Origin: an uncultured bacterium | GTDB taxonomy: Bacteria > Omnitrophota > Omnitrophia > Omnitrophales > Aquincolibacteriaceae | Length of the DNA: 64,000 nt | Direction of reading: 5' to 3' | Assembly (NCBI GenBank): GCA_964606385.1 | Contig: CAZSFZ010000003.1 | Location: 111,615 to 175,614 of the forward strand | Shown: one piece after another, positions 40,418-59,607 of the stretch | Numbering within the stretch: the first letter of the stretch is position 1 | How the letters are laid out: every line of letters starts with the position of its first letter | Notes under the pieces: generated by a model | Databases searched by the model: none | What the model was told of the DNA's origin: nothing | The model's input: the letters and a program-made list of their open reading frames with translations, nothing else | Position numbers and translations under genes: made by a program

Positions 40418-40476
40418 AACGGCTTTTTTAAACTGCAATATGGTTCCCCCCTTGTAAGACGCCTGAGCAATAAAAA

Positions 40477-40563: not shown

Positions 40564-40644
40564 ATCAAAAATCTATTGGTAGGGTGTGCTGTCCTGGCCA
40601 CCTTTATTTTAAAAACAAGGCCAGGGCTGCCACCTCTCCATTAA

Positions 40645-41201: not shown

Positions 41202-41239
41202 GTAATGGTCGTGATGGGGCTTTTCCATAAGAGGGGTTT

Positions 41240-41438: not shown

Positions 41439-41441
41439 AAT

Positions 41442-41515
41442 CGCGCCCGGCAGGAGTTGAACCTGCAACCCCCACATCCGTAGTGTGGTGCTCTATCCAA
41501 TTGAGCTACGGGCGC
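41442..41515 (-). tRNA. tRNA-Arg (anticodon ACG)
   Basis: Minus strand reads GCGCCCGTAGCTCAATTGGATAGAGCACCACACTACGGATGTGGGGGTTGCAGGTTCAACTCCTGCCGGGCGCG. Anticodon loop CTACGGA. CCA is not encoded. Confidence 0.85.
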
Positions 41516-41755
41516 AAACCACATTAATTTTTTATTCTATAATGCTTGTTCGCGACCAGTCCTTTAGGACAGGCGCAAACTGTTTTAACTTATTATATTC
41601 ATTACACTTAAAGATCTTAGAGGGTATCGGTGTTTGACCGTTCGCCCCTCACCGAGGATCGGCCCGAAAACATGCAAGCAAGGCAAACCATTCCTAAAGA
41701 GGGCGTTATTATACGCATTTTAGGGGGAAATGCAAAAATTGTTCCATGGAATCAT

Positions 41756-43256: not shown

Positions 43257-44546
43257 CTAAGTTTTTCTGCTTTTCAAGGCTTCGAGGTGCTCGATGACCT
43301 TCTGCATCTCAGAGTTAAGGCTATGCGCGGAAACTTGTTGGTCCTTTTTTAAAAACTCCCTTAAAAAGACCGTGAGTTTTTCCCGTCGCAGCAGATCTTT
43401 ATAGTGGTTAAGCGTTTTGATCAGCCGCCCCACATATTTTCGCTTTTGGTTTCCATCCGCAATCGTCGCGACAAACCGGACCGCTCCTGCGTGGATATCG
43501 GAAAGCTCGAACAGATGGACGCAACTTTGCAGGCAATGGGTCCGGCAGTGATCGACTTTGCAGCGTATCGCCTTCGCTTTCTGAGAAAGCCACTCTTTCC
43601 GCAGCGAACTCTCTTTCAGGTTCCCGATCAGACCCTGACAGGTCCAAAGATCTCCGTCGAAGGTCAGGACGATCCTCACGATCGCTTCATAGCATTGCAG
43701 GTCTTCATTGAAGGACGTCCCTTCAAAATAGTCCGGGATCAGCTCCAGGATCCTTTCATCGACGTGGATAAATTCGTCTATGGCCGCTTTTTTCAGCAAC
43801 AGGATCTTTCGAATAACCTCCCGGAGCTTATCCATGTTCCGCACGGAAACCCAAAGGTCGTTCTTTTTCCGTTCCTGCATTTCGGTGTTGTCCGACATCA
43901 TGGGCTGGAACACGATGATATTACAGCCTTTGCTTCGCGCAAGATCGATCATGGGCAGCATGTCATCGAGATTGCAGTCCATGATCGTGAAATTGATGCC
44001 GACCGTGGGACGAGCCCGCTCGCCCCGGATCTTGCGAAAGATGTCGATCGTCGTTAAAGCCTTTTGGAAAGAGCCTCTGCCTCTTATAAAGTCATTGGCG
44101 GTTTCAAGGCCGTCGATCGACAAGGTGATGTGGCTCAACCCGCTTTGGGTCAACCGGCGGGCGGTCTCCTCGTCGATCAAAAGACCATTACTGATCAGAT
44201 CGATCTGGCCGATCTTTTTCGAAGCGGCATGTTCGATCAGCGAGAAAATGTCTTTCCGCAGGATCGGCTCCCCGCCCGAAAAGATGATGTGGTCGACCTT
44301 CAGTCCGGCGATCTGATCGATAATCTTTTTGCACTGTTCCGTCGAAAGTTCTTCTTCGGCCCTCGCATTCGCCGACGGGATCCCGCACATCTTGCATCTC
44401 AGGTTGCAGCGGTTCGTCAGCGAAAAGTAGACGTGTTCCGGAGGGCACAGGGGGCGTTTCAGAACCTTGGAATAATAAAAGCCGAGGTTCCTCTCGATCC
44501 GTTTCCATTCCCTTTCCAAACCCTCCTGTTTCACGACCGGCATCAT
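43257..44546 (-). CDS. radical SAM/SPASM-domain protein
   Basis: CNLRCKMCGIP CX3CX2C motif, GGEP, and a C-terminal Cys-rich SPASM-like region (CYEAIV...WTCQGLIGNL...CKVDHCRTHCLQSC). The start is the ATG at 44546 in an ATGA overlap with the upstream gene stop. The track ORF extends to 44669. Confidence 0.75.
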   Translation of the reverse strand: MMPVVKQEGLEREWKRIERNLGFYYSKVLKRPLCPPEHVYFSLTNRCNLRCKMCGIPSANARAEEELSTEQCKKIIDQIAGLKVDHIIFSGGEPILRKDIFSLIEHAASKKIGQIDLISNGLLIDEETARRLTQSGLSHITLSIDGLETANDFIRGRGSFQKALTTIDIFRKIRGERARPTVGINFTIMDCNLDDMLPMIDLARSKGCNIIVFQPMMSDNTEMQERKKNDLWVSVRNMDKLREVIRKILLLKKAAIDEFIHVDERILELIPDYFEGTSFNEDLQCYEAIVRIVLTFDGDLWTCQGLIGNLKESSLRKEWLSQKAKAIRCKVDHCRTHCLQSCVHLFELSDIHAGAVRFVATIADGNQKRKYVGRLIKTLNHYKDLLRREKLTVFLREFLKKDQQVSAHSLNSEMQKVIEHLEALKSRKT

Positions 44547-45574
44547 AGACCCCTTATAATCGCGCTCAAGGACCCGGATCTTTCCCGCGAATAACAGGAT
44601 TGCAAACACAGGTCCCTGCAATTTTTGACACCTCGCCTGAGCGCAGAGGCTTCCTTGGAATACCAACACTCCCGCAGCGAACGCTCGTTCAGGTTCCCGC
44701 AGATCCCATGGCAGGTATAGACAAGCGGCGCTCCGTCATCGCCGCCGCAAATGAAAATGGTTTTGTAGCCTCCGAAACATTGCCAGTCCGCTTTCTCCAA
44801 CGTTTTACGGTAATATTTTCGAAGCAATTCCAACTTGGGTTCTTCATAGATCTGGATGTGATCCCGCTTGAGATCCTTGACTGCTTGAAGCGCCTGATCT
44901 AAAGCGGGCCACTTTGCTTCGCGAACCCAAAACTCGCTTTCCTGCCGGTCGGGTGTATTGAAGTTATCTTTTAAAAGCGGTTGAAAGTTGATCACATCCA
45001 CACCCAGGTCATCCGCAAAGCTCAAAAGCTTTGGCAAGTCTTCCAGATTATGCTCCATCACGGTGCATGCGATCCCGATCGAGGGACCTCGGCCCCGCGT
45101 CTTTTTCGCTCTTATGAGCACCTCGATGCCTTGCACCGCCTTACGGAAATTGCCTTTACCCCGAACCAGATCATGGGTATCTTCCAGACCATCGATCGAA
45201 AAATGAATGTGGTCCATCCCGGAATCGGCCACGGCGTTCGCGAATGCTTCGTCGATCAGTGTACCATTCGTGGTTACGATCGATCTCACGCCTTTGGCCC
45301 GGCAATGGCCGCAGATCTCCAAAAGGTCCTGCCGGAGCAGAGGTTCTCCCCCTGTCAACACGGCTTCCGGGATCCCCATCGCGGCGGCTTGATCGATGAT
45401 GTTCGTGACCGTTTCCCGGGAAAGTTGTTTATGGGGAGCTGCTGGAAGAGAACACATGCTGCAGCGAAGGTTGCACGCCTCAGTCATAGGGATCTGGATC
45501 GCATCGGGACCTACCCAGGGATGTCCGATGTGTCGCGATAGCCAAAAAAGTGCGTCTCTGATGTTTTCTCTCAT
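44543..45574 (-). CDS. radical SAM/SPASM-domain protein
   Basis: FWLSRHIGHPWVGPDAIQIPMTEACNLRCSMCSLP, GGEP, and a C-terminal CFGGYKTIFICGGD...CHGICGNL...CRDLCLQSC. The track start is TTG at 45667. The ATG at 45574 is preferred by analogy with the paralog at 52810. Confidence 0.75.
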   Translation of the reverse strand: MRENIRDALFWLSRHIGHPWVGPDAIQIPMTEACNLRCSMCSLPAAPHKQLSRETVTNIIDQAAAMGIPEAVLTGGEPLLRQDLLEICGHCRAKGVRSIVTTNGTLIDEAFANAVADSGMDHIHFSIDGLEDTHDLVRGKGNFRKAVQGIEVLIRAKKTRGRGPSIGIACTVMEHNLEDLPKLLSFADDLGVDVINFQPLLKDNFNTPDRQESEFWVREAKWPALDQALQAVKDLKRDHIQIYEEPKLELLRKYYRKTLEKADWQCFGGYKTIFICGGDDGAPLVYTCHGICGNLNERSLRECWYSKEASALRRGVKNCRDLCLQSCYSRERSGSLSAIIRGL

Positions 45575-45585
45575 GTGCCCCACAA

Positions 45586-46683
45586 TCAGCGGACTCCGCT
45601 TTGCGTGACGGCTTTGTAGATCGTTTTGTTCTGTTCCTTGAGAATGGTGCAACATCCCGCAAAACAAGGGGCTTTATCTTGGAGTCGTTGCCTGAATTTT
45701 AAATGTTCGCCGGTCCAAAGTTTTTTGAGCCGGATCTTTTTCACGTTCATGCCGGCCACGGGGTCCTGGATCTGCGGGCATTGCAGGATGTCGCCGTTCG
45801 CGTCCACGGAAAGAATATAATAATTCGTAAAGCATTGTCCGGGGTTCTCTTCCGGGCTTTTGCCGGAGCAAGAACACGCCTTCGCTCCCCTCTCCTCCGG
45901 CGCGACCGGGGCCTTGTCTTCATCCAGCCAGTTCCTGGCATAAGCCAATTTAGGGTTTTCCACGAACTTCCGCAACAGGCCTTTGAACTCCTCCCGCTCC
46001 GCCACGCTGAGCTGCAGGGACTCATAGTCCTTCTGCCCGGAATAAAGCATCTTCAGGACATGCACGGATTCGATGTTCTTATGCGCTTGCGCGAAATCCA
46101 GGATATCGGGAAGGGTCTTGTAGTTATGGCGCGTGATCACAACATTCAGGAGGACCCTCAGCTTGCTTTCAAGGCGTTCCAGTTCTTCGAAAAACTCTGT
46201 AATCTTGTGGAAATATGGTTTTCGGTCGATCGCGGGTCTTACTCTGTGCTGGATCTCAGGTGTCACGGCATCCAGGCTCAGAAGCATGATGTCCCAACCA
46301 AACTCTGTCATGACCCGGGCGGCTTCTGGACCCAAAAGGCTCCCGTTCGTGGTCATCGATCCCATAAAGCCGAGCTCTTTGATCTTGCGAAGAATGGCGA
46401 AGATGTCTTTTTTACAGAAGGGGTCCCCGACCAGCCCGCCCAAGTTGATTTCTTTGACTTGGAAGGTCTTGGCGTCCTCAAAAAACGCGAACCATTCTTC
46501 GGGGGCGAGCTCCCTACCCCAGTCCGGCCTTATGGCGCCGCCGTGGTCCGGATGGCCGCCCCGGCAATAAAGGCAGTCGAGGTTGCAGGTTTTCGTCATC
46601 ATGAGCGCGATCGTCTCCGGCCCAACGTTTTTGTCGCGTAATGATCTTTTGACGCGCTCGATCGTATTTCGATCCATGGTCAT
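45586..46683 (-). CDS. radical SAM/SPASM-domain protein
   Basis: TKTCNLDCLYCRGG motif and a C-terminal CSCSGKS...CFTNYYILSVDANGDILQCPQ...CFAGCC. ATGA overlap with the upstream gene. Confidence 0.75.
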   Translation of the reverse strand: MTMDRNTIERVKRSLRDKNVGPETIALMMTKTCNLDCLYCRGGHPDHGGAIRPDWGRELAPEEWFAFFEDAKTFQVKEINLGGLVGDPFCKKDIFAILRKIKELGFMGSMTTNGSLLGPEAARVMTEFGWDIMLLSLDAVTPEIQHRVRPAIDRKPYFHKITEFFEELERLESKLRVLLNVVITRHNYKTLPDILDFAQAHKNIESVHVLKMLYSGQKDYESLQLSVAEREEFKGLLRKFVENPKLAYARNWLDEDKAPVAPEERGAKACSCSGKSPEENPGQCFTNYYILSVDANGDILQCPQIQDPVAGMNVKKIRLKKLWTGEHLKFRQRLQDKAPCFAGCCTILKEQNKTIYKAVTQSGVR

Positions 46684-47738
46684 GATCCCCGAAAAGTGTA
46701 TTTGCTGTTAGTCGCTGATGAGCCGCCTCTGAAGATCGAGATCAGCTTTCCCCAAAAACGCTTTTGGGACGAATCATGCCGTGCGCTCTCTTGCCCCGCC
46801 TTGTCCACCACAAGACCCGCCAGGCAAGGCGATTTGCATTTTTGGACCCTTTTCATTTCCTGAAGATACGCGTCGCAATTCAAGGCGTCCTCAAGCTTGT
46901 GCAGATGAAGGGGGTGATCGATCTCTTTGCCGCAGATCCAGAGATTGCCGCGATAGTTGATGTTAAAGCTCTTTGTTCCCATCAGGCAGTAATTATCCGT
47001 GATCAGCTGGTTGGTGAAATAATCCCAATACCGATCCATCACCCGCAAGGGACGGGCGAGCTTCATCTTTCTTTCGTTCTCATGCAAAAAGGTCAAAAGG
47101 TTTTTCAGCGCTTTTAATTGATGTCGGTCCAGATGAAACCCGTTACGCAAATAGTAGACTTCGTTGTTCGTAATGACCGGTTGAATATCAATGTGGAGTC
47201 GTTTGTGCTTCTTCATGAAAAATTTCAAGAAATCCTTAAAGCGAAGCATGTTCTCGGGCATCAGGACCGACGTGTAGAGAAAAGACCAACCCCCTTTCTC
47301 GAGCAGGCTCACCGCCGCCATGACCTTTTTAAAAACCCCCTTACCACGGATCGCGTCATTCTCTCGCTCCAGACCGTCCAGCGACAACAAGAAAACGACT
47401 TTGTCCTTACAGGCTCGGATGCTTTCTAAAAAAGCTGCGTCTAAAAGGGTCGCATTGGTGACAATGTTAGCAGTAATTCCCTTCGAAGTGATCAACGGGA
47501 TCAAGCGGCCCAGATCGGCCGCCCGCGACAAAGGCTCTCCGCCTCCGAAAGCGATGGTTTCGACAGGAAAGCGAGTGATGTTTTGAACAATGGCCTCCCA
47601 TTGCTCCACGGTCAACTCGAGCTCGACCGGAGTCTTGCTCACCGTCGTGGAGCACATGATGCAGCTAAGACCGCATCGGTCGGTCATGGCAATATAGAAC
47701 TGACCGAACCGTTTCGGATTATTTTCTGAAAAAACCAT
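46680..47738 (-). CDS. radical SAM-domain protein (tandem paralog A)
   Basis: MTDRCGLSCIMCSTT, GGGEPLS, and a C-terminal CLMGTKSFNINYRGNLWICGKE...CKSPCLAGLVV. About 70% identical to the N-terminal half of the 48291 gene. Confidence 0.75.
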   Translation of the reverse strand: MVFSENNPKRFGQFYIAMTDRCGLSCIMCSTTVSKTPVELELTVEQWEAIVQNITRFPVETIAFGGGEPLSRAADLGRLIPLITSKGITANIVTNATLLDAAFLESIRACKDKVVFLLSLDGLERENDAIRGKGVFKKVMAAVSLLEKGGWSFLYTSVLMPENMLRFKDFLKFFMKKHKRLHIDIQPVITNNEVYYLRNGFHLDRHQLKALKNLLTFLHENERKMKLARPLRVMDRYWDYFTNQLITDNYCLMGTKSFNINYRGNLWICGKEIDHPLHLHKLEDALNCDAYLQEMKRVQKCKSPCLAGLVVDKAGQESARHDSSQKRFWGKLISIFRGGSSATNSKYTFRGS

Positions 47739-47747
47739 ATCGGCCTC

Positions 47748-48185
47748 TTAAGACGACTCCCGGTCCCTTGAAAGGTTCAACATTTGCGATTTTATTTCCT
47801 GGGTATCGCAACAGACCTGGTCCAGATGGTCGCGCATGAGTTCCGTAAAATTCCGGATCGCTTCCAGATCGTGGGCCATGCGTTCGCTGGTAACATGGGA
47901 CTGCCGCAGTGATTGTTGTATGCTGTGCATTTGAGCTTCACGGGCGCTTTCCGAAATAATCTTGGACTCAAAAAGAAGCTGTCCTATGTTCGCGAGCATC
48001 CGAACCACGGCGGCCACAATCCAGCAGATGATCATGAACGTGGTCGCTTGAAGGACCCAGTTTGGCTTCCGCGCATGAAAAAAAATCGCCTGCGCTCCCA
48101 CGACGCTCCCTACGATCGCGATGACCCAGGAAAAAGCCAACAGAATGACGCTGTTCAGCATCGGCCTTTTCTTAAATGGTAACAT
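47748..48185 (-). CDS. small membrane protein (2 TM) with a coiled-coil tail
   Basis: 145 aa. Strong AAGGAGGTT RBS. A G10 homopolymer tract sits 28 nt upstream of the ATG. Confidence 0.5.
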   Translation of the reverse strand: MLPFKKRPMLNSVILLAFSWVIAIVGSVVGAQAIFFHARKPNWVLQATTFMIICWIVAAVVRMLANIGQLLFESKIISESAREAQMHSIQQSLRQSHVTSERMAHDLEAIRNFTELMRDHLDQVCCDTQEIKSQMLNLSRDRESS

Positions 48186-48290: not shown

Positions 48291-50267
48291 TTATTTTTCC
48301 TTAAATCCTTTCAAAGAGGAACGGCATCCTTCACTTTCAAGAAACTGCTTCAAACTTATCAGTTCGCGATAGTTTTTCTGCCAAGTGTCTTTCTTCCCCG
48401 GCCCAAATGCAAGGGTCCCGTCGCTTTCGATCATGATCGAAAAAGGACCCCCGTTTTGGGGGCCGCTCAAATTTCCCGCTTCGTCCTCGGTAAAAACACC
48501 AAAATCAGAAAAGTCGGGATTAGGGTCGAAGCGAAAGCGGTCTATGTTAGATTTGATCTTCAGATCATCAAACTTTTTTCTCATGAGCGGTCTATCTTTT
48601 AAAAATCCTTCTTGCTGCTCCGGAGAGAACCCGCGGGATTCTTCGGGCGAAAGAAAGAAAAATCCGTTCAACTTGAATTCCGCCAAAAGGCCGAAAAGCC
48701 TGGAGAGGCCGCCGTCTTGCATTCCGACGGGCGGCGATAAAATATCGATGAGAGGATGGTCGGCGTGATACACCCCCTTATATTTTTCTGAGGCTCTCAA
48801 GATCCTGAGCGCGCGTTCTTGTTGCGATCCGAGAGTCAGATCAAGACGGACGCCCAAGCGGCTGATCAAACCGTCTCCCGTCAAACGTTCCAAGTTCGCC
48901 TCATTCAGCCGAAAAACGCCGGCCATTACGCTAATGAATAGGTCCTCATTTTTCAATGCTTCTAAGAAATAAAACAGCTTTTCCTTGTAAAAAAAAGGGT
49001 CACCATTCCCGCCGATGTAGATCTCCCGGATCTCAAGCTCGCGGATGTCCTTCACTAGCTTATCGATCAGATCCCTATGCCTAAAAAAATCTTCGTGGGG
49101 GCTAAAACTACACGCATGACCACCAAGCTCCCCTCGGGCGTCCCCACACGAGCTCACTGAGAGAAAAAGCCTGGGGGGGAATGAACTGGCGCGGGAGTCC
49201 GTAGAGTTTTTTGCTTCTCCCGCTCTTCCTGATTCAATTTCGAGCGGGAACCGCCTTTTGAAGCGATCCCTCCGAAGCGCACGGCCGTAAACTGCTTTTT
49301 TCCCTCCGGCATATCCGGTTTTTGTTTCTACCACAAGACCGGCCAAACAGGGGGATTTGCATCTTTTCACCCGCTCCATCTCCTTAAGGTAAGCTTCCGT
49401 GTTAAATACATCTTCGAAAGGATGTTGATAAAGGGGAAAATCGATCTCCTTGCCGCATATCCAAAGGTTCCCGCGATAATTGATGTTAAAGCTCTGCGTT
49501 CCCATTAGGCACCGGTTGTCGGGAACGATCTCATTCCTAAAATAATCCCAATACCGGTCAATCACAGGTAAAGGGCGGGCAATCTTCATCCGTCTCTTGT
49601 TCTTATGCAAAAAGGACAGGACATCCCTCAGGGAGTTCAGCTGCGCTTCATTTAAGTGGAAACCGTTCCGCAGGTAATAGATCTCATTATTTGTGATGAC
49701 CGGCTGGATGTCCACAGGAACGGCCGGGTACCGTTCCGTCAAAAATTCTAAAAAATCCACAAAACGGCAGACGTTCTCGGGCATCAGGACCGAGGTGAAA
49801 AGGAAAGGCCATTGATAGCTCTGAAGCAGGCGCGCGGCATTCATCACTTTTTGAAAAACACCCTGCCCCCGGATCGCGTCGTTCTCTTTTTCAAGTCCGT
49901 CTACCGAGAGAAGAAAAGTGACCCTGTTTTTATGCGCCAGAACGCTCTCCAAAAATTTTTCATCCAGACAGGTCGTATTGGTCACGATGTGGATGGGAAC
50001 GCCCTTGGAGGCGATTAGAGGGATCAAGCGCGTCAGGTCGGTCGCGCGAGACAGGGGTTCCCCGCCGCCGAAAGCGATCATTCCGATCGGGAAGCGAATG
50101 ATATTGCGGATGACGGATTCCCATTTTTCCACGGACATTTCATGCTCCACGGGCGTCTTGCTGATCGTCGTGGAGCACATGATGCAGCTCAGGCTGCACC
50201 GATCCGTCATCGCGATATAAATATGCTCGATCCTTGCGGGCATGCCCCGGTTCTCGGTCGGGTTCAT
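48291..50267 (-). CDS. radical SAM-domain protein (tandem paralog B) with an extra degenerate radical-SAM-like C-terminal domain
   Basis: N-terminal half (MTDRCSLSCIMCSTT...CKSPCLAGLVVE) is paralogous to the 46680 gene. The C-terminal 330 aa contain SCGDARGELGGHAC and IYIGGNGDPFF, a radical-SAM-like fold lacking the canonical Cys triad. The start is the ATG at 50267 (ATGA overlap). The track extends to 50333. Confidence 0.7.
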   Translation of the reverse strand: MNPTENRGMPARIEHIYIAMTDRCSLSCIMCSTTISKTPVEHEMSVEKWESVIRNIIRFPIGMIAFGGGEPLSRATDLTRLIPLIASKGVPIHIVTNTTCLDEKFLESVLAHKNRVTFLLSVDGLEKENDAIRGQGVFQKVMNAARLLQSYQWPFLFTSVLMPENVCRFVDFLEFLTERYPAVPVDIQPVITNNEIYYLRNGFHLNEAQLNSLRDVLSFLHKNKRRMKIARPLPVIDRYWDYFRNEIVPDNRCLMGTQSFNINYRGNLWICGKEIDFPLYQHPFEDVFNTEAYLKEMERVKRCKSPCLAGLVVETKTGYAGGKKAVYGRALRRDRFKRRFPLEIESGRAGEAKNSTDSRASSFPPRLFLSVSSCGDARGELGGHACSFSPHEDFFRHRDLIDKLVKDIRELEIREIYIGGNGDPFFYKEKLFYFLEALKNEDLFISVMAGVFRLNEANLERLTGDGLISRLGVRLDLTLGSQQERALRILRASEKYKGVYHADHPLIDILSPPVGMQDGGLSRLFGLLAEFKLNGFFFLSPEESRGFSPEQQEGFLKDRPLMRKKFDDLKIKSNIDRFRFDPNPDFSDFGVFTEDEAGNLSGPQNGGPFSIMIESDGTLAFGPGKKDTWQKNYRELISLKQFLESEGCRSSLKGFKEK

Positions 50268-52813
50268 TTTCGTTTCTTGCCTTTCGGGAACGGGAAGAGC
50301 GGCCTCTGATGTCTTTCTCGCAGTACTTTCCATTTGTCAAAAAAGGTCTTGCTGATTGTGGAAAGTTTTTCGGATTCCGGCCGCTCGGAACAGAACTGGG
50401 TGCAATTCGAGCGGCATCGTTTGATCTTTTTGCGCAGTTGCTGCGCTTTTTCCGAGAACCAAAGCTCTTTAAGGCTGCGCTGCTGGATGTTGCCGAGGGA
50501 TTCCATGCAGACAAAACTAACATCGCCGGAGGGCCCGACGAAGATCCGGCTGAAACCGGCAAAGCAGGTATTCACGGTCCGTTTTCTCTCGAAATGCTGC
50601 ACGGTCTTTTCAGCCATAAAATCAATGTGAGGTTCCCCGGGCAAAGCCGCGCGCTTCATTATTTCGAGTTCTTCAAAGACACGGCGCAGCTCCGCGATAT
50701 CAGACGCCTCGAGCAAAAAATCAGATTTGAATACCGAGAAAGACGCAAGATCGCTGTTATCCACGAGAGGCTGGAAGGCGATATAGCAACATTGGGTCCT
50801 GCGGGCGAGCCGGGCCAGGTCAGGAAGTCCCTTAACATTACTTTTCATGATCACGCTGCACATGGCGACATCCAGCCGCCCTTCGGGGTTGTCCTCAAGC
50901 CTTCGTTTGTATTCCTTTTTATAGTGATTGATCCAATTCAAAGCCTGGAGAGCCTTGTCAAAGACTCCTTTGCCCCGGATCGCGTCGTGAATTTCGGGAT
51001 CCGCGCTATCGATCGAAAACGAGAGGCTGCGGAGTTTGGAGCGGACGATTTTTTTCGCAAGCTCTTCGGTGATCAGACTTCCGTTTGTGTTAAGCGTAGT
51101 GACAACACCCGGACGCTGGGCGTAATCGATCAATTCAAAGATATCCGGCCGCAAAAGCGCTTCCCCGCCTGTAAAATAGATATTCTTCGCCCCAAGCGCA
51201 ATGCCCTGGTCGATCACCCGCTTCACTTCTTCGGTAGTCATCTCCCGGTCGTGCTGCTGCTTCCACACGGTGCACATCTTGCAGCGGATGTTGCATTTCG
51301 TGGTCATCATGATCTGGATCATGTCCGGACCCACCAGCACCTTACTGAAAAGACGTGAAAAATAAAAGAGGGCGTTCCGCTTCGTTTCACAAAGCAGCTC
51401 CCAAAAGTCTTTCGCGTAAGGGTCCTCATGTTTTCTTGAATGCCTGTTGCTGGTGATACCGCCTTTGTAGAGCCCGAGGAGCCGCGCGAGCCTCCGAAGG
51501 CCCTTGGCGCGCCATGTCCTTGTGCGGTAATCGTTCTTTTCTTGCGCGATGAACCAATGTCCTTGGGGATCGTATTGGATCTGAAGGTCCTCGGCCTGCT
51601 CATGAAGCGCCGAGTTCTCCGGGATATAACAAGCGCTCACGTTCACGAACTCCTCGATATATTTCCTGTTCTTGAACAGGAACCATGCTGTCCGGAAAAA
51701 ATCCGAGGCGGTCTCTTTGGGATGCCCCACCATCCACAGGGTATTCACTTTGATCCCTGCCTCGTAGGCCCTTTGCATGGTGATCGAAGCTTCTTCGGCG
51801 CTCGGCTTTCCCATGAATTTGAGAATCTTGTCCGAACCGCTTTCGATGCCGAAGGTCAAATACAGACATCCGGCATTCTTGATCTTTTTGAAAAGTCCCG
51901 GTGGCATATCTTTCCGGGCCCTGGCCATGCCTCCCCAGGTAATATTCAGCTTCTCTTGGATCAAAAGATCCGCCAAGCGTTCCAGCCCCTTGAGGTCGCC
52001 GTTCACCAGAAGATCATTGCTCTTAAACCAGGTCCTTCCGTACCGCGCCTTATGCTTTTTGATCTCTTCGACGATATCCTCCGCGGGACGCATCCGGTAA
52101 TTGCCCCAAATGGGTTTGTCGCAACAGAAGCGGCAATGGTAATGACACCCCCGGCTGAAGAGGATCGGCATTTCCGTTTTATTATCGTAAGCGTTCATGT
52201 CAAAGAGGTCGAACGCGGGGAGCGGGATCGTATCGATAGGGATTGTTCCGTGGTTATCGCCGTTATCGACCAAGGTCCCACCCTCCCGAACCACCGTCCC
52301 TTTGATCCCTGTGAGCGGCTCTCTCCGGGCCAACCGTCCCAGGATCTCACTCATGATATTCTCACCTTCTCCCTTGACAAAAATGTCGACATCCGCATTG
52401 CGGGCATCCCGAAGATCCAGTCCCGACGAACAGAAGGGGCCGCCATAAATGATCGGGACCGAAGGGGCGATCTTCTTGAGCTTCCCAGCTAGTAGATTGG
52501 CCATCATGCGCGAATGGGAGTTCACTCCGAAGCCTACGACCTCGGGACCATAAGCCATAACTTCCTGGGCCCAGTGATCGGCAATCCTTTCGATATTAAA
52601 ATGTTTCTTGATCTCTTCCTCGCTCAGCCAAAGATCCGCGTTCGGCCAATCCCAAAGATGCTTTGCGGGGCCACTTTCTGCGTACAGCCTGGAGTTGAAA
52701 CAAAAAACTTTTACATCGTGTTTTTCTTCTCTGACCTTTGCCGCGATGTAAGCAAGACCCAAATGGGGAAAATCCACACCGTAGACAGGAGGAAAAACGA
52801 GGGCGACCTTCAT
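50264..52813 (-). CDS. fusion of a B12-binding (class B) radical SAM with a SPASM-type radical SAM
   Basis: 849 aa. The N-terminus MKVALVFPPVYGVDFPHLGLAYIAAKV is a cobalamin-binding domain followed by the RGCHYHCRFCCD radical-SAM motif. A second domain begins near residue 480 with MMTTKCNIRCKMCTVW, GGEALL and a C-terminal Cys cluster (CFAGFSRIFVGPSGDVSFVC...CRSNCTQFC). Confidence 0.75.
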   Translation of the reverse strand: MKVALVFPPVYGVDFPHLGLAYIAAKVREEKHDVKVFCFNSRLYAESGPAKHLWDWPNADLWLSEEEIKKHFNIERIADHWAQEVMAYGPEVVGFGVNSHSRMMANLLAGKLKKIAPSVPIIYGGPFCSSGLDLRDARNADVDIFVKGEGENIMSEILGRLARREPLTGIKGTVVREGGTLVDNGDNHGTIPIDTIPLPAFDLFDMNAYDNKTEMPILFSRGCHYHCRFCCDKPIWGNYRMRPAEDIVEEIKKHKARYGRTWFKSNDLLVNGDLKGLERLADLLIQEKLNITWGGMARARKDMPPGLFKKIKNAGCLYLTFGIESGSDKILKFMGKPSAEEASITMQRAYEAGIKVNTLWMVGHPKETASDFFRTAWFLFKNRKYIEEFVNVSACYIPENSALHEQAEDLQIQYDPQGHWFIAQEKNDYRTRTWRAKGLRRLARLLGLYKGGITSNRHSRKHEDPYAKDFWELLCETKRNALFYFSRLFSKVLVGPDMIQIMMTTKCNIRCKMCTVWKQQHDREMTTEEVKRVIDQGIALGAKNIYFTGGEALLRPDIFELIDYAQRPGVVTTLNTNGSLITEELAKKIVRSKLRSLSFSIDSADPEIHDAIRGKGVFDKALQALNWINHYKKEYKRRLEDNPEGRLDVAMCSVIMKSNVKGLPDLARLARRTQCCYIAFQPLVDNSDLASFSVFKSDFLLEASDIAELRRVFEELEIMKRAALPGEPHIDFMAEKTVQHFERKRTVNTCFAGFSRIFVGPSGDVSFVCMESLGNIQQRSLKELWFSEKAQQLRKKIKRCRSNCTQFCSERPESEKLSTISKTFFDKWKVLRERHQRPLFPFPKGKKRK

Positions 52814-53871
52814 GGTTGGGCCTTCAGAAATTTACGGAATACGTTTTTCAATGACGCGGACTCCTGACGGGCATGGCAATCCTGAAGGCAGTACTGACGG
52901 CATTGTTTGATCCAGGCCCTCCGTTTCCGGGACGCCGCCGATGTCCAGAGCTTCTTGATGGAAGGGGTTTGGCGAACATTGCCGATGATCTCGCCACACA
53001 TCTGGATGGACCCGTCCGGCAACAGCACGAAGCGGCGGTATCCCGCGAAACACACCCAATCATTTTTACCGACCTCTCTATTAAAGTATTTTTTCAGCAG
53101 ACCGTAGCTCGGGTAATCGAGATGGTATTTGGTCCTTTGTAAAGCGTCGAACTTCCCGAGGATCTTTTCGAACTTTTTAAGACGTTCCCCGGAGATCCAC
53201 AGGCCATGTTTGTCGTCGTCCGAGCTTTGTTTATAAAGCTCCACATTGTTGGCCACGACCGGCGTGATGTATAAGGATTCCGCAGAAAGTTTCTCGGCTA
53301 ACCAAAAATATTCTTCCAGATCCTCGAAATTATAGTTGGAAAGGGTCAAGATCAGGACCTTGATCGGGCTCGATAAAGTTTTAAGACGGTTAAGATGTTC
53401 GATCCCTTTGAGGATCTTGTCGAAGGCGCCTCGCTGCCCGCGGATCGTGTCATGGGTCTCCGCTTTGGCTCCGTCCAAAGAGATCGTGAGAACATCCAGC
53501 TTGGAATCGATCAGTTGCTTCGCCATCCGCTCATCGATCAGCGTCCCGTTCGTCGTCAGGATGACCCGCAATCCGAGATCCTTGGCATGTTTGATAATAT
53601 CAAAACAGACGTCCCGCAGCAGGGGCTCTCCCCCGCATAAATTCACTTCCCGCACACCCCAACGGGCGCATTGATCCATCACGGACCGGATCTCTTCGAA
53701 TGTCAGTTCCTGTGTTTCTTCCGCGCGCTCCCAGACATCGCACATCTTGCACCGGAGATTACAGCGGCTGGTCACGGAGATCTGAAGAGTGTCCGGAGCG
53801 ATCCAGGGATGCCCGGTCTTGCGGGACAACCAAAAACCAAGATCTCTCGTAAGGTCATTCCATCGATTCAC
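52810..53871 (-). CDS. radical SAM/SPASM-domain protein
   Basis: FWLSRKTGHPWIAPDTLQISVTSRCNLRCKMCDVW, CGGEPLL, and a C-terminal CFAGYRRFVLLPDGSIQMCGE...CRQYCLQDC. GTG start with an AAAGGAAA RBS. Confidence 0.75.
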   Translation of the reverse strand: MNRWNDLTRDLGFWLSRKTGHPWIAPDTLQISVTSRCNLRCKMCDVWERAEETQELTFEEIRSVMDQCARWGVREVNLCGGEPLLRDVCFDIIKHAKDLGLRVILTTNGTLIDERMAKQLIDSKLDVLTISLDGAKAETHDTIRGQRGAFDKILKGIEHLNRLKTLSSPIKVLILTLSNYNFEDLEEYFWLAEKLSAESLYITPVVANNVELYKQSSDDDKHGLWISGERLKKFEKILGKFDALQRTKYHLDYPSYGLLKKYFNREVGKNDWVCFAGYRRFVLLPDGSIQMCGEIIGNVRQTPSIKKLWTSAASRKRRAWIKQCRQYCLQDCHARQESASLKNVFRKFLKAQP

Positions 53872-53917: not shown

Positions 53918-55840
53918 CTATTTTGAATCGCAAAAACACGGCAAAAGACACGGCCAGCCGCATTTTTGGGCCTGCTCATTCGCGGCGATTCTTTTAGGGC
54001 TGGTCAGAACCTCTCTGAGGGACTGGACAGCGGCATGCCCATACACCGAGAAACAAGTGGCATATTCACCTTGGTTAGAGATCAGGACGGTCTCCGCGGC
54101 AGAGGCGCAACGGACATCCGCGGAGGATAAATTACCTTCATAATATTTTTCGATCAACCTGAGATTGTCCGCAGAGTTTTTTATAAAATCCGGATGAACG
54201 TTCTTGAATTCGATCAGCTGCCTCAATGCTTCTCCTAAAGCCGGTACTCTTTCCCGCGGAACCCAGTATTTTGATTTTTTACGCTCCGCCATTTTCAGAT
54301 TATTCGGAAGCAGCGCCTGGAATTGCAGCGAATTAGCCCCTAGAGACAACACATATTCGGCCAATGACCGGAGTTCTTCCAGGTTTTGGTTCAGTATGAT
54401 GCTGATAACATTGAAATTGACCTCCGGGCAGTCTTTCTTCAGTCTTGAAAGCAGCGCCAGCCCTTCCCGGGTCCGCTGCCACGCATCAGCGGAGTTCCTG
54501 ATCTCGTTATGAAGCGCGGGCGAAAGGGAATCCAGGGAAACCACCAGAGAAAGAGTCCGTCCGGTCAGGTAAGGCTTCAACCGTTCGAAACGATCCCGGA
54601 TCACGACGCCGTTGCTGAGGACCCCGAGATCCTTGAGTCCGAGCTTTTTTGCGTAATCCAGAATCTCAAAAACGTCTTTCCGCAGCAGGACCTCTCCCCC
54701 GGAAAGAGCGATCTCTTTGATCCCGAGATCGCGGGCCTCTCGCAGCAATTTTTTTGCCGCGGAGGTATCAAGCTCTTCTTGGGTCCCCGCGGTTTTCCAA
54801 ATGTCGCAAATATTGCACCGAAGATTGCAGGCATGGGTCAGGTCCAGAATGAGAAGACGCGGCAACAGCATTTCTCCCAGAAGAAATGTTTCCTTGCCGC
54901 TCCGGATCCTGAAAAACTCCGTAACGTTGCCGCACAGATAAGCGATCTTATGAAGCGCAAAACAACCGGCTACCGCTGTTTTTTTCCAAAAATTTTTAAT
55001 GGAATATTCGCGTGTCAGTTTTTTGCCGAGCAGGTAACAAAATCTGGGGATCTTGAGAACATTGACGATCGTGGCCGCCCAGAATGAACCCGGGCCCGTC
55101 TTCAGTTCTTGAAGCAGGACATGGCTCGGATGCAGGTGCTTGACCAGCAGGTTCCCCCTCCCGTAGATGTACGCTTGTTTTGCCAGGCTGGATAGGGATG
55201 GATCGCGATAATGAACCACCTTGATATCCTTGTCCCAAAAGGAACGGCAGCCGGCCTGGAAGATCCGCCAGAAAAATTCAAGGTCTTCTCCCCCGGGCAA
55301 AGGGAATTTTTCATCAAAAACATGCCGCAAAAAAAGAGACTTTTTGCAAGAAACATTACAGGTCGGAAAAAAGATCAGCTCGCTCTTTCCGGCTATGTCT
55401 ACCTCGATGCTGCAGGTGCTCAGGAACTGACCGACGATCACAGAGGCTTTTTGAACAGCTGTTAAGGTGGCGCCGCCGACGGCGACAAGGTCGGGGTGCG
55501 TCCTGTGGTCTTGGACCATCCGGGCCAACCAATCCGGATAAGCTTCGCAATCGTCATCGATAAAGGCGACGATATCCCCTCCAGCCAAACGGACTCCCCA
55601 ATTCCGGGCTGCGGCAGGGCCTTGATTTTCTTGGCGGAAGATCCGGACGGCCGGAAGGGATGCGTTGCGAGAATCCCGACAAAGCTCCTCCAAGCCTTCC
55701 AGCTTTTCTTTCGAGCCGTCATCAATGATGATGACCTCGAACCGGTCCTTGGGATAATCCTGCTTGATCAAGGAACGCACGCATTTCGCAAGGCCCTCTT
55801 TGCGGTTAAAGGTCGGCACCACAACAGAAATATCGATCAT
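53918..55840 (-). CDS. fusion of a family-2 glycosyltransferase (N-terminal) with a radical SAM/SPASM domain (C-terminal)
   Basis: 640 aa. N-terminus MIDISVVVPTFNRKEGLAKCVRSLIKQDYPKDRFEVIIIDDGS with a DDD/DxD GT-A fold. From about residue 320, LTHACNLRCNICDIW, SGGEVLL, and a C-terminal CASAAETVLISNQGEYATCFS...CGWPCLLPCFC. Confidence 0.75.
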   Translation of the reverse strand: MIDISVVVPTFNRKEGLAKCVRSLIKQDYPKDRFEVIIIDDGSKEKLEGLEELCRDSRNASLPAVRIFRQENQGPAAARNWGVRLAGGDIVAFIDDDCEAYPDWLARMVQDHRTHPDLVAVGGATLTAVQKASVIVGQFLSTCSIEVDIAGKSELIFFPTCNVSCKKSLFLRHVFDEKFPLPGGEDLEFFWRIFQAGCRSFWDKDIKVVHYRDPSLSSLAKQAYIYGRGNLLVKHLHPSHVLLQELKTGPGSFWAATIVNVLKIPRFCYLLGKKLTREYSIKNFWKKTAVAGCFALHKIAYLCGNVTEFFRIRSGKETFLLGEMLLPRLLILDLTHACNLRCNICDIWKTAGTQEELDTSAAKKLLREARDLGIKEIALSGGEVLLRKDVFEILDYAKKLGLKDLGVLSNGVVIRDRFERLKPYLTGRTLSLVVSLDSLSPALHNEIRNSADAWQRTREGLALLSRLKKDCPEVNFNVISIILNQNLEELRSLAEYVLSLGANSLQFQALLPNNLKMAERKKSKYWVPRERVPALGEALRQLIEFKNVHPDFIKNSADNLRLIEKYYEGNLSSADVRCASAAETVLISNQGEYATCFSVYGHAAVQSLREVLTSPKRIAANEQAQKCGWPCLLPCFCDSK

Positions 55841-55845
55841 GACCG

Positions 55846-56622
55846 TCAGGTTTTTTTCATAATATTAGGTTTAAGCTTCAAAAAGAGTCCCCACCCGGCC
55901 AGCAGTGTGATCGCGGCGATAAGGGAGGTCGTCAACAATTCATTCCAAAGGACCCGATCTTCGAATAGCACGCCTCGGAAAAAAGCGATCATTGGCGTCA
56001 TGGGATTGATGTTACATATCCATTGATAGTTTTGAGGGACCATATCCACGGAATAAAAAACGGGCGTGATCCAGAACCAAAACATAAGAAACACGGACAA
56101 AAGCTGGCCAATGTCGCGAAAATAAACATTCAAGATCGAAATGATAAGGCCCGCCCCGGAAACAAACAAAAGGATAAGGGCGAATCCCACGATCAGGAGA
56201 GGAAACAAAGCAATAATCTGGGGCCTGAACCATAAAAAAAGAGGATAGATAAAAATCCATCCGATGAGAAAGTTCAAAAAATTCCCCAGGACAGATGCTA
56301 GCGGGATGATCTCGGCCGGCAGATTGAACTGTCTGAGAACGTTTTTCTGGTTCAAGATGGAAAAAGCCGCTTCGGAAACCGCGTTTGAAAAAAAGAACCA
56401 GGGATAAATGCCGGCCAAAACGAACATAGAAAAATCCTTGATGCCGGTCTTAAAAACGCAGACAAAGACGAAGCTGACCGCCAGCATAATGAGTACGGGG
56501 TTAATGACGGCCCACGCCACGCCTAAAAGCGATCGGGAATATTTATTTTTGAGTTGGCCGACGGCCATCCTCCAGACCGCTTCCCGGAAAGAGAACAGTT
56601 CTTTAAGTCTTCCGCATTTCAT
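55846..56622 (-). CDS. wzm: ABC-2 type polysaccharide export permease
   Basis: 258 aa with six hydrophobic segments. The N-terminal region (AVGQLKNKYSRSLLGVAWAVINPVLIMLAVSFVF) is typical of Wzm/TagG/KpsM. Confidence 0.8.
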   Translation of the reverse strand: MKCGRLKELFSFREAVWRMAVGQLKNKYSRSLLGVAWAVINPVLIMLAVSFVFVCVFKTGIKDFSMFVLAGIYPWFFFSNAVSEAAFSILNQKNVLRQFNLPAEIIPLASVLGNFLNFLIGWIFIYPLFLWFRPQIIALFPLLIVGFALILLFVSGAGLIISILNVYFRDIGQLLSVFLMFWFWITPVFYSVDMVPQNYQWICNINPMTPMIAFFRGVLFEDRVLWNELLTTSLIAAITLLAGWGLFLKLKPNIMKKT

Positions 56623-56712
56623 TCAAAACCCTCCCTAGCAAAACTCAAGACTAACACCAGCGCGATCAATCGACAACGAAATCCCCGAGCCCATCGATCC
56701 ATAGGCCATGTT

Positions 56713-57828
56713 TTATGCCAACTCCTTCAAAAGTTTTCGGATGTTGTGTTGATAAGTTTCAAACTGAAAAACCCCTGGAATCAAAGGTGTGGCTGCGGAC
56801 CGCTTCCCGGCCATGATCTCATCTTCGATCGAAGCTGGCGATAAATCTTTGCAGTGCCTCTCTTGAAAATAGTCCAAGATCTCTGCCGATCCCGGATTCA
56901 TCGTGATGAGGATCCTTTGAGAGAGCACGAGCGCTTCCAGAAACGCCAATCCGAACGGTTCATTCCTCCGAAACGGAAAGACACAAACATCGACCTTCTT
57001 GAGAATTCCTGCTACATGGGTCTGAAGCCCGCAAAAAAAGACCACGGATTCCATGCTGTTTTCACGAAGGTACCGTTCTATTTTCTTTTTGTATGCTTTA
57101 GCGCGCCAGTCGCAGGGAGCGACATCTCCCACGATAAGAAGTGCGAATTTACGAGGAACTGTTTTGCCGACCTCATGCATCATCCGCACCAGCTCGAGCT
57201 GTCCCTTGGAAGGATGAATCCTTGCAACCACCGCAAAAATGACCGCATCGGGAGGCAAAGAAGGCTGCTCCTCTTCGAAAGGTGACAGGTCCATAGGTGC
57301 CGGGGAGACCATTCCCTCATAAATGATGGGGATGGCCTTCCGTTTCTCCGTCGAAAAAAGAACATCCCGTATGTTGCGAGACATGCAAACCACGGTCGAT
57401 CGCGTCGCCTGCGCTATCCCGATAAGCATGCGATTCACGCCGCGAGAGGGGAAAAATTCCCGCAAGTGCCAGATGTGTTTTTTCCGCGTGAATGAGGCCA
57501 CCAAGGATGGGAAGACAAGCAACAAGTTGTTCGTATAAAGCAGGTCGATCTTTTTTAAAAGAACGTATCCGGTAAAAAAAACCATATCGAGCAAAAACAA
57601 GACCGGAGCGAGCAGATAATAAATCGGAGACCATGAGAAGGTTAAAATGCTCAGAGGAAAAACGAAGATAGAAACATTCTTTCTTTTCAGCATTTTTTGG
57701 AGCGGGCCCTGTCGCGGAACCACCACGGTGATCTCATACTCACCCCGGATCGCTTCGATCAGATTAAGAAGTCCACGCTCCGAGCCATAAAGCTCGCTCC
57801 CCGAACTAAAAATAAGTATTTTTTTCAT
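56713..57828 (-). CDS. family-1 (GT4-like) glycosyltransferase
   Basis: Rossmann-like GT-B layout with EX7E-like segments (FGLAFLEALVLSQRILITMNPGSAEI). The ATG at 57828 (MKKILIFSSGSELYGSERG) is preferred, in an ATGA overlap with the upstream GT2. The track starts at 57888. Confidence 0.65.
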   Translation of the reverse strand: MKKILIFSSGSELYGSERGLLNLIEAIRGEYEITVVVPRQGPLQKMLKRKNVSIFVFPLSILTFSWSPIYYLLAPVLFLLDMVFFTGYVLLKKIDLLYTNNLLLVFPSLVASFTRKKHIWHLREFFPSRGVNRMLIGIAQATRSTVVCMSRNIRDVLFSTEKRKAIPIIYEGMVSPAPMDLSPFEEEQPSLPPDAVIFAVVARIHPSKGQLELVRMMHEVGKTVPRKFALLIVGDVAPCDWRAKAYKKKIERYLRENSMESVVFFCGLQTHVAGILKKVDVCVFPFRRNEPFGLAFLEALVLSQRILITMNPGSAEILDYFQERHCKDLSPASIEDEIMAGKRSAATPLIPGVFQFETYQHNIRKLLKELA

Positions 57829-58682: not shown

Positions 58683-58740
58683 TTCAGCATATTTTCGACA
58701 AAGAAAAATAAAACCCTGTTAGACGGCGGTTCGGGTCGGG

Positions 58741-59520: not shown

Positions 59521-59607
59521 GCCCTGTCTTTCCGTGTGAAGGAGACGTTTTTTGTTTTCCGCAGTGAGTATGCCTCTTGGACCCAAAACCTCTCGTCTCG
59601 ACGTATT

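Follow-up and report, generated by a model that had tools for sequence, protein, structure and literature searches.

The stretch of DNA analysed here, hereafter the window, comprises 64,000 nucleotides of contig CAZSFZ010000003.1 (positions 111,615 to 175,614) from an uncultured bacterium of the phylum Omnitrophota, and carries on its minus strand an open reading frame (ORF) of 849 amino acids (aa) with an ATG start, 50264..52813, in which a B12-binding-type radical S-adenosylmethionine (SAM) module is fused to a radical SAM/SPASM-type module, as judged from the ORF, its Pfam matches and its identical and 78%-identical orthologues. An earlier note, made from the letters of the window, had claimed this ORF with exactly these coordinates and with two CX3CX2C motifs, and the ORF list and Pfam bore both out; the motifs, which the note had put at about residues 215 and 485, were found at residues 221-232 (RGCHYHCRFCCD, holding Cys223/227/230) and 504-516 (TTKCNIRCKMCTV, holding Cys507/511/514). 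As the ATG of the fused gene overlaps the stop of the upstream radical SAM gene by 4 nucleotides (nt), and the downstream radical SAM gene, by its called start, overlaps the fused gene's stop, the fused gene is embedded in a tightly packed operon.

Assignment with Pfam models, which the note had proposed as a check, returned B12-binding, SPASM and, in two separate stretches, Radical_SAM (PF04055, E 1.9e-50 on the 849-aa protein), matches that lie well outside what chance would give. From its N-terminus, the protein begins with a Rossmann-type cobalamin-binding-like domain (residues 1-190; 52244..52813, minus strand, as for all features of the fused gene), recognised by PF02310 and by the fold matches of an AlphaFold2 (AF2) model of the N-terminal half, with the Pfam match itself covering residues 79-157 (52343-52579; 38.9 bits against a cut-off of 32.1). 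There follow the first radical SAM core with a C-terminal cap (residues 213-453; 51455..52177), placed by its invariant cysteines and by profile matches to the Protein Data Bank (PDB), and within it the first CX3CX2C, C223/C227/C230 (52124-52147), read from the sequence and from the homologue alignment. Residues 454-462 (51428..51454) are a fusion scar, delimited by codon-by-codon comparison with two relatives, L035 and P0002, described below. The second radical SAM core occupies residues 502-631 (50921..51310), where the best Pfam Radical_SAM stretch lies, and includes the second CX3CX2C, C507/C511/C514 (51272-51295), read from the sequence and from the orthologue alignment; the protein ends in a SPASM/twitch-type auxiliary Fe-S domain (residues 750-808; 50390..50566), supported by conserved cysteines and by a Pfam SPASM match (PF13186, residues 750-804), which at 35.2 bits clears its cut-off of 21.5.

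Each half was aligned and modelled separately (N-half, residues 1-455; C-half, residues 456-849). A single full-length MAFFT alignment was also tried and discarded, as it misplaced C-half homologues onto the N-half radical SAM core, with identities of 16-42% against 50-74%. The N-half model (predicted local distance difference test, pLDDT, 94.0; predicted template modelling score, pTM, 0.91) gave whole-length Foldseek matches in the PDB to TsrM, MgmA (9ccb, the methyl-coenzyme M reductase (MCR) glutamine methylase), OxsB, CysS, AprD4 and TokK (TMq 0.61-0.71), and a profile search of PDB sequences returned the same set (AprD4 7.6e-35, 9ccb 1.1e-30). A Rossmann-type cobalamin-binding domain, a radical SAM core and a cap follow one another in the class B order (PF02310 and AF2 fold), and the CX3CX2C motif lies within a partial TIM-barrel SAM-binding core, as in the radical SAM superfamily at large, judging by the model and by conservation, with C223/C227/C230 invariant in 66/66 aligned N-half homologues. 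These PDB profile and Foldseek matches supported the class B assignment that the earlier note had given to the first half. We know of no strict sequence motif for class B radical SAM enzymes. The N-half fell below all curated NCBIfam cut-offs for B12 radical SAM enzymes (here and below, statements on NCBIfam cover the best 25 matches per protein, with the radical SAM modules scanned), scoring 115 bits against 750 for ApyD (NF050148), 108 against 282 for the C-methyltransferases (TIGR03975) of RiPPs (peptides synthesised ribosomally and modified after translation), and 85 against 600, 75 against 481 and 69 against 360 for the PhpK, BchE and MCR glutamine methylase models. In sequence and modelled fold the N-half thus resembles class B enzymes, and cobalamin binding and methyl transfer are predicted for it.

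The C-half model (pLDDT 92.1, pTM 0.90) matched SuiB, SkfB, BlsE, CteB, PqqE, anSME and DesII in Foldseek (TMq 0.54-0.63), and the profile search of the PDB returned SkfB (2.5e-40), PqqE (4.4e-40) and BlsE (7.5e-32). The second CX3CX2C therefore lies in a true radical SAM fold by both Pfam and AF2, where the earlier note had held that a different fold around this motif would undo its reading. Its cysteines C507/C511/C514 are conserved in 38-39 of 39 orthologues and in 61-62 of 63 homologues, and the half also carries a GGE motif (FTGGEALL). The auxiliary cysteines are arranged as C750-X18-C769 ... C800-X3-C804-X3-C808; all five were present in 39/39 orthologues and C750, C769 and C800 in 63/63 homologues, with C675/C676 additionally conserved among the orthologues only. 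The canonical SPASM motif has seven cysteines, CX9-15GX4C ... CX2CX5CX3C ... C, and binds two auxiliary [4Fe-4S] clusters. This motif was not found in the C-half across the 39 orthologues and 63 homologues aligned, so that the SPASM-like cysteine cluster of the earlier note stands as a Pfam match above cut-off with a five-cysteine, non-canonical pattern. Such a pattern is compatible both with one twitch-like cluster and with two incompletely Cys-ligated clusters, and the C-half would hold one or two auxiliary Fe-S clusters. None of the NCBIfam SPASM families (W-cofactor maturase, NirJ, AhbD, MftC, PqqE, ScmE/F, sactisynthases) reached its cut-off on the C-half, the best scores being 102 bits against 380, 102 against 500 and 94 against 265. 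An RRE (RiPP recognition element)/PqqD domain was absent from the Pfam results for the fusion protein, and the stand-alone C-half proteins have merely about 40 residues before the CX3CX2C.

Searches with each half alone found the two modules as separate proteins in many relatives. With the N-half, about 39 orthologue clusters were recovered (45-72% identity, 440-457 aa, all stand-alone), and with the C-half a similar number (50-74% identity, mostly 403-430 aa); for the alignments, 39 C-half clusters at 45% identity or more were taken as orthologues, and likewise 39 N-half clusters. Stand-alone N-half orthologues terminate at the position of residue 453-454, and C-half orthologues are stand-alone as well, with a few further relatives carrying a C-terminal methyltransferase domain. 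Wherever the source names a phylum for an orthologue of either half, it is 'Candidatus Omnitrophota/Omnitrophica'. For at least 20 pairs of N and C orthologues the longest contig was of equal size in both result tables, an indirect sign that the members of these pairs sit on the same contig. At the loci examined (L007, L008, L009, L035 and L036/L037), the split N and C genes are adjacent on the same strand with stop and start overlapping or 1-6 nt apart: the junction reads ...GGIQ* TAA-G-ATG in L007, a TAATG stop/start overlap in L009, TAAGTATG in L008 and a 1-nt overlap in L036/L037. L006 is the sole exception to adjacency, a paralogous radical SAM/SPASM gene being interposed there. By their spacing, the split N and C genes of these loci, L006 excepted, are translationally coupled.

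The closest split relative, L035, is 74% identical to the window protein over residues 235-847 in a single tblastn high-scoring segment pair, and its two genes lie in the same frame. Its junction reads ...GGT GGG ATA ACG AGC CAT AGG GAA TGA GGA ATC ATG GAA GAT..., and at the stop and start positions the window has ...AGG CAT TCA AGA AAA CAT GAG GAC... and the 78%-identical fused protein P0002 has ...CGG GAC GCG AAA CGG CCG GAG GAT.... The former TGA stop is thus TCA (Ser459, nt 51437-51439) in the window and GCG (Ala) in P0002, the former ATG start is CAT (His462, nt 51428-51430) in the window and CCG (Pro) in P0002, and the Shine-Dalgarno-like GAGGA of L035 is lost in the fused genes. The scar at residues 454-462 is what remains of a C-terminal tail, a stop codon, the spacer between the genes and a start codon, and the junction, which the earlier note had rightly sought in this region and placed near nt 51400, maps to codon 459. 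As the in-frame TGA of L035 aligns with Ser459 and its old Met with His462, the fusion arose recently, by loss of the stop codon. Selenocysteine was considered for the L035 TGA and found unlikely, since the position holds Ser or Ala within a linker of low conservation, and since GAGGA and ATG follow directly; no selenocysteine insertion sequence was searched for. In this junction comparison the window and P0002 were 79% identical to each other and either was 74-75% identical to L035, which makes L035 the outgroup; the most parsimonious reading of these sequences has the fusion happen once, in a common ancestor of the two fused lineages. Housekeeping proteins of the two fused genomes share 90% clusters, so the two organisms are close relatives, and the YchF protein of the window genome clusters with proteins named Candidatus Omnitrophota. 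In our reading, an upstream gene for a class-B-type radical SAM protein of about 454 aa and a downstream gene for a SPASM/twitch-type one of about 415 aa, adjacent and translationally coupled, came into one frame, and the intervening TGA was lost by point mutation before the window lineage and one congeneric lineage parted.

Because the source is a metagenome-assembled genome, and because a single nucleotide separates the fused from the split state, a chimeric join or a miscalled base deleting a stop had to be weighed as the origin of the 849-aa ORF. The identical 849-aa protein is on record from an NCBI contig (184,568 bp), and the Logan assembly of run SRR15237811 also translates to it. In a search of 5.8 billion proteins, only two clusters had the full-length architecture at high identity, the window protein and P0002 (849 aa, 78% identical), the latter recovered by independent assemblies of two JGI metagenomes and two SRA runs and flanked by the same neighbours as the window gene on both sides. 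The two proteins align across the junction with no insertion or deletion and with the frame kept. P0002 carries a different sense codon, GCG, at the site of the lost stop in its four independent assemblies, the former start codon and Shine-Dalgarno sequence are mutated as well, and synteny is identical on both sides. The earlier note had asked that read support be checked over the junction and that the same fusion be sought in related genomes; at the level of assemblies the junction was supported, by the identical gene in a second assembly and by P0002 in four more. With the junction in independent assemblies of two lineages, and with the low substitution ratios given next for both halves, an artefact is effectively excluded, and we regard it as extremely improbable.

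The ratio of non-synonymous to synonymous substitution (dN/dS, Nei-Gojobori) between the window gene and P0002 was 0.073 overall, and by region 0.078 for the B12 domain, 0.076 for the first radical SAM core, 0.050 for the second and 0.053 for the SPASM/C-terminal region, at a dS of about 1.8, which is near saturation. The linker alone (residues 441-495) was relaxed, at 64% identity between the two proteins. By this measure both halves are under purifying selection. We are highly confident that the ORF encodes a real bifunctional fusion created by stop loss.

Similar architectures were found elsewhere in sequence databases. The same four-domain layout of a B12 radical SAM module and a radical SAM/SPASM module occurs at about 30% identity in P0175, P0192, P0200 and P0212 (among 1.84 billion representatives), and in these unrelated lineages the architecture appears to have arisen again. 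Other pairings join neighbouring genes of this operon, in combinations that differ between lineages: in P0149 (735 aa) the C-half is fused to the next radical SAM protein, in P0169 two radical SAM/SPASM modules are fused, and in some Omnitrophota (L008, 667 aa, L008:6211..8214; P0287 and P0297) the C-half is followed by a C-terminal class-I-type methyltransferase (Methyltransf_9/23), which hints that conventional methylation follows the step of the SPASM enzyme in lineages of this type. Among the 150 best matches of the search that gave P0175 and the others, 87 had at least two matched stretches and sizes reached 2689 aa, with relatedness to the N-half at about 30% identity; P0121 (2331 aa) had five Radical_SAM, four B12-binding and one SPASM match, and in the P0125 cluster (1497 aa) one member is named Candidatus Calescamantes. 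No literature was found on such tandem multi-radical-SAM polyproteins. The 849-aa architecture is thus not unique in sequence space, and double radical SAM layouts recur in metagenomes. Promiscuous pairwise fusion among operon neighbours, to which the GT2::radical SAM gene and the gene downstream of the fusion (both below) also belong, would be expected of enzymes acting together on a common scaffold.

These data also bear on whether the fusion is a neutral accident of operon compaction, its halves working as independently as the split proteins do and possibly on different intermediates. Just 2 of about 40 orthologue lineages are fused, a single base change sufficed since the genes were already in frame, and conservation within the protein is lowest in the linker, all of which would suit such an accident. 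Against it, the fusion has been kept through saturating synonymous divergence, the split pair is adjacent and coupled in L007, L009, L036 and L035, and there are both the recurrence of the architecture in unrelated proteins and the several other pairwise fusions among operon neighbours; we consider a neutral accident improbable, and a selectively maintained fusion remains the preferred reading.

The genes around the fusion, from 41756 to 63470, all lie on the minus strand and are tightly spaced. In order of transcription they encode a TagH/Wzt-like ATPase, a radical SAM/SPASM protein, a tetratricopeptide repeat (TPR) protein, family 2 and family 4 glycosyltransferases (GT2, GT4), an ABC-2 permease, a GT2::radical SAM fusion, a 353-aa radical SAM/SPASM protein, the 849-aa fusion, a radical SAM protein fused to a degenerate radical SAM domain, a 145-aa membrane protein, four radical SAM proteins and an SGNH-TPR protein. 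The first six genes span 55846..63470 (Wzm-like ABC-2 permease, GT4, GT2, TPR, 379-aa radical SAM/SPASM and 908-aa ATPase, from Pfam and NCBIfam), and the presence of a PF01061 permease and a PF00005 ATPase beside glycosyltransferases is the layout of ABC-transporter-dependent glycan systems. The best NCBIfam models for this exporter were TagH and Wzt/RfbE for the ATPase and Wzm/RfbD and KpsM for the permease, all under equivalog cut-offs. The ATPase (60744..63470; ORF, Pfam and NCBIfam) has a 669-aa C-terminal extension at residues 240-908, which consists of internal repeats and gave zero Pfam matches and PDB matches at chance level (E >=0.036). The same repeat module (E 2e-17) recurs at L007:5776..8871 as the C-terminal part of a 1031-aa ORF, the N-terminal half of which is very hydrophobic, and the extension may be the substrate-recognition module of the exporter.

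Immediately upstream of the fusion lies its partner, the 353-aa radical SAM/SPASM paralogue (52810..53871; ORF and Pfam), in the same gene order in L001, L007 and L036, and before it a 640-aa GT2::radical SAM fusion (53918..55840; Pfam Glycos_transf_2 and Radical_SAM). Equivalents of the latter with both domains (629-640 aa) occur in L001 and L036, GT2 and radical SAM domains were found in every copy scanned, and in L008 a 634-aa ORF is known at this place by position and size alone; for the GT2 part the best NCBIfam models were MftF and EpsD, under their cut-offs. For glycosyl transfer and radical chemistry to be coupled covalently is itself unusual.

Downstream, a second radical SAM::radical SAM fusion (48291..50333; ORF and Pfam), whose start overlaps the stop of the 849-aa fusion, probably begins at 50267. 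Its N-half is 67% identical to the product of the next gene but one (46680..47738), an identity that indicates recent duplication. Its C-half is homologous to a stand-alone L007 radical SAM protein (30% identity, E 2e-38), with CNDSCRYC replaced by SVSSCGDARG; with the CX3CX2C lost and Pfam Radical_SAM reaching merely E 0.034, this module looks like a catalytically dead radical SAM domain kept in place. Between the two duplicated radical SAM genes lies a 145-aa ORF (47748..48185) with a hydrophobic N-terminal half, probably a membrane protein, which the orthologous operon of L001, the sister lineage, does not have and which is lineage-specific. Four further radical SAM genes (470, 374, 365 and 352 aa; 43257..47738; Pfam) and the last gene of the operon, an SGNH/GDSL hydrolase fused to TPR repeats (41756..43231; Pfam, conserved in L001), complete the cluster.

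Past the upstream end of the window, a Logan assembly with identical genes (L038:1..9364) encodes a PMT/PMT_2-family GT-C glycosyltransferase of 456 aa, B12 radical SAM proteins of 474 and 503 aa, two TPR proteins, a 163-aa protein of no known function and a GT9 protein (heptosyltransferase family), and the window ORF 63566..63991 may be the end of the PMT gene. Intact radical SAM domains number at least 10 in the window and 12 with this flank, and the glycosyltransferases five, of four families (GT2, GT4, GT2::radical SAM, GT9 and PMT-type GT-C). Gene order is conserved in other Omnitrophota (L036, L007, L009 and L008). A search for precursor-peptide ORFs in and around the operon found no conserved small ORF, gaps within it being about 106 nt or less, and an Rfam scan of the window that covered cobalamin riboswitches returned two tRNAs only. 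These are tRNA-Arg(ACG) (41441..41516, minus strand), flanked directly by the end of the operon on one side and a TadA-type deaminase gene (40725..41228, minus strand) on the other, and, after the latter, tRNA-Ser(TGA) (40476..40564). TadA edits A34 of tRNA-Arg(ACG), and the tRNAs mark the boundary of the cluster. A giant ORF of 6816 aa (13781..34231, minus strand) lies 7.5 kb downstream of the cluster, and nothing was found tying it to the radical SAM operon; very long proteins have been reported in several Omnitrophota orders (bioRxiv 10.64898/2026.06.07.730766).

From these data a function can be proposed for the fused protein. Each half keeps its own [4Fe-4S]/SAM site, so that two independent 5'-deoxyadenosyl radicals are possible on one chain, each site being expected, from knowledge of the class, to cleave SAM reductively. 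The N-module would most probably carry out methylcobalamin-dependent methylation of an unactivated carbon, or another cobalamin-assisted rearrangement, and the C-module would abstract hydrogen, with its auxiliary cluster or clusters carrying electrons for oxidation, epimerisation or C-C/C-X bond formation. Both modules would perform consecutive tailoring steps on the same intermediate, which the genomic context suggests to be a cytoplasmic lipid-linked glycan or glycoconjugate made by the glycosyltransferases of the operon; the Wzm/Wzt-like ABC transporter would export the product, the PMT-family GT-C may transfer it onward, and fusion would fix a 1:1 stoichiometry and the proximity of enzymes that already co-operated when split. 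That the halves are adjacent, coupled genes in the other relatives examined strengthens the idea of a shared substrate, in the manner of a Rosetta-stone fusion. A glycan substrate is supported by the five glycosyltransferases, one of them fused to a radical SAM domain, by the TagH/Wzt and Wzm/KpsM scores and by the SGNH hydrolase, of a family common in glycan acylation, as well as by the absence of an RRE/PqqD domain and of room for a precursor-peptide gene. Radical SAM chemistry depends on SAM and reductant of the cytoplasm, and this fits an ABC-transporter-dependent route, where the polymer is finished before export.

Several observations weigh against this proposal. The N-half fold is shared, by profile and Foldseek, with AprD4, a 1,2-diol dehydratase acting on an aminoglycoside. 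AprD4 is not known to need cobalamin, and the B12-binding Pfam match is therefore no proof of cobalamin use or of methylation. Among the closest solved relatives of the C-half, peptide-modifying enzymes (SkfB, SuiB, CteB, PqqE) are as many as sugar-modifying ones (BlsE, DesII, BtrN), and as no NCBIfam match reaches a curated cut-off, chemistry is not transferable from a characterised homologue. Neither an initiating phosphoglycosyl transferase nor a sugar-nucleotide gene was found in about 31 kb, and no Wzt C-terminal carbohydrate-binding domain was recognisable in the ATPase by Pfam or PDB searches. As the fused state occurs in so few lineages, and as a stop-loss fusion can be near neutral, fusion is not needed for function. 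On balance we favour, as probable, a selectively maintained bifunctional tailoring enzyme acting on an exported glycoconjugate, with its substrate and chemistry read from context and class; taken singly, the tailoring of a glycoconjugate is about evenly poised, and a pairing of methylation with another radical step at one and the same residue or intermediate is put forward more guardedly, as somewhat short of that.

Other substrates could be handled by a real fusion. The pathway might tailor a membrane lipid or glycolipid core, as in the archaeal and bacterial modification of tetraether lipids, where a SPASM/twitch radical SAM enzyme (the bridge synthase Hbs/Gms) and a B12 radical SAM enzyme (the methylase Hgm or the ring synthases Grs) are clustered and act on the same lipid; glycosyltransferases would then supply the head groups, and the lipid would travel by way of the ABC-2 transporter. 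Genes for Hbs (SPASM/twitch, AhbD-like) and Hgm (B12 radical SAM) cluster, and Hbs homologues are present in Omnitrophota (bioRxiv 10.1101/2023.10.20.563219), Omnitrophota metagenome-assembled genomes carry the lipid genes Mss and ElbD (PMC11868695), AhbD- and NirJ-type models are among the NCBIfam matches of the C-half, and its profile search reaches the glycerol dialkyl glycerol tetraether (GDGT) enzyme Tes/GDGT-MAS (7tol, E 6.8e-22). Tes nevertheless ranks far below SkfB, PqqE and BlsE in that search, its NCBIfam model, which has a cut-off of 450 bits, gives 35-76 on the radical SAM proteins nearby, Tes, Mss, isoprenoid, fatty-acid and glycerol-ether genes were not found in the cluster of about 31 kb, and transmembrane segments were not evident, by inspection alone, in the radical SAM proteins. 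Glycosyltransferases of this number and variety together with a TagH/Wzt-type exporter are also more typical of polymer assembly, and we hold a lipid substrate to be unlikely.

A slightly fainter prospect is a RiPP-like or protein-modifying maturation, in which the B12 radical SAM half would C-methylate, and the SPASM half cross-link or epimerise, a glycosylated exported peptide or protein. The best NCBIfam matches of the N-half, those to ApyD and TIGR03975, are to RiPP C-methyltransferases, and the C-half has its closest solved relatives in the RiPP maturases SkfB, PqqE, SuiB and CteB; protein O-mannosyltransferases belong to the PMT family, and TPR proteins are abundant in the cluster. These NCBIfam scores, however, are far under their cut-offs, there is neither an RRE/PqqD domain nor much sequence ahead of the CX3CX2C in the stand-alone C-half, no conserved small ORF fits the narrow gaps, the sole extra ORF being that of the 145-aa membrane protein, and a peptidase or leader-cleaving transporter domain was absent.

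The preferred reading, tailoring of an exported glycoconjugate, can tentatively be extended to an undescribed, Omnitrophota-wide assembly line, in which about a dozen radical SAM enzymes (three of B12 type, and several of the dozen fused in pairs that differ from lineage to lineage) would remodel a cytoplasmic glycan or glycoconjugate before Wzm/Wzt-type export, although we rate this extension as less likely than not. Were it true, the product would be a surface polymer with C-methylated, cross-linked or otherwise radical-modified sugars not yet known, and the recurrent fusions would mark physical contacts within a multi-radical-SAM complex. To our knowledge, the targets documented so far for radical SAM tailoring are chiefly small natural products, cofactors, lipids and peptides, and if the substrate is a glycan such tailoring would extend to a cell-surface polymer that is exported. 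When two enzymes are fused naturally, the genomic evidence for their joint action is strong; here the fusion ties a B12-type radical SAM enzyme to a specific SPASM/twitch partner, and it offers an entry point to a conserved, uncharacterised, radical-SAM-rich operon of an uncultured phylum. The fused protein is also a handy single-gene construct, its two radical sites present at 1:1 stoichiometry, from which one could learn how cobalamin-dependent and auxiliary-cluster radical chemistry combine on one substrate.

No paper was found in the literature on a B12 radical SAM::SPASM fusion or on this Omnitrophota operon, and the known systems were compared module by module. TsrM, MgmA, OxsB, CysS and TokK share with the N-half the two-domain build and the cap (about 450-520 aligned columns, profile E 1e-30 to 8e-19), but are 14-18% identical to it and none is fused to a second radical SAM domain; AprD4 (6fd2) matches the N-half as well as these cobalamin-dependent enzymes do. 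SkfB, PqqE, SuiB, CteB, anSME, BlsE, DesII and BtrN share with the C-half the radical SAM barrel followed by an auxiliary-cluster domain, at 14-20% identity, whereas the C-half is without an RRE and has the C-X18-C ... CX3CX3C motif in place of the canonical one. MJ0619, cited in the past for two CxxxCxxC motifs and once called a 'class D radical-SAM methylase' (PMC5943407), was considered as a double radical SAM precedent and rejected: it is now assigned as the tetraether synthase GDGT-MAS, one enzyme holding three [4Fe-4S] clusters and a rubredoxin-like iron (PMC9433317), and is not described as a fusion of two.

Joint action of such enzymes on one molecule is known from separate proteins. 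In albucidin biosynthesis, the cobalamin-type radical SAM enzyme and the second radical SAM enzyme of the AlsB/AlsA pair act on the same molecule, a nucleotide (PMC13331322), and the clustered B12 radical SAM enzyme Hgm and second radical SAM enzyme Hbs act on the same tetraether lipid, H-GDGT (bioRxiv 10.1101/2023.10.20.563219). Both pairs resemble the split state of most Omnitrophota, a likeness of arrangement. FbiC carries the CofG and CofH radical SAM domains in one chain, which are separate polypeptides in archaea, and uses two 5'-deoxyadenosyl radicals to make one product (PMC11917521). CofG, CofH and FbiC were not among the best 25 NCBIfam matches of the 849-aa protein, which is no homologue of FbiC by this measure; FbiC is also without cobalamin-binding and SPASM domains, and its substrates, tyrosine and a pyrimidine, are unrelated to the context of the operon. 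The likeness is a functional analogy, in that both proteins have two complete radical SAM domains per chain and split counterparts in other lineages, and by that analogy FbiC is the clearest functional precedent for how the fusion would work. Set beside these systems, the fusion is a young single-nucleotide event with precedents and alone is not extraordinary, and the operon around it is the more novel object.

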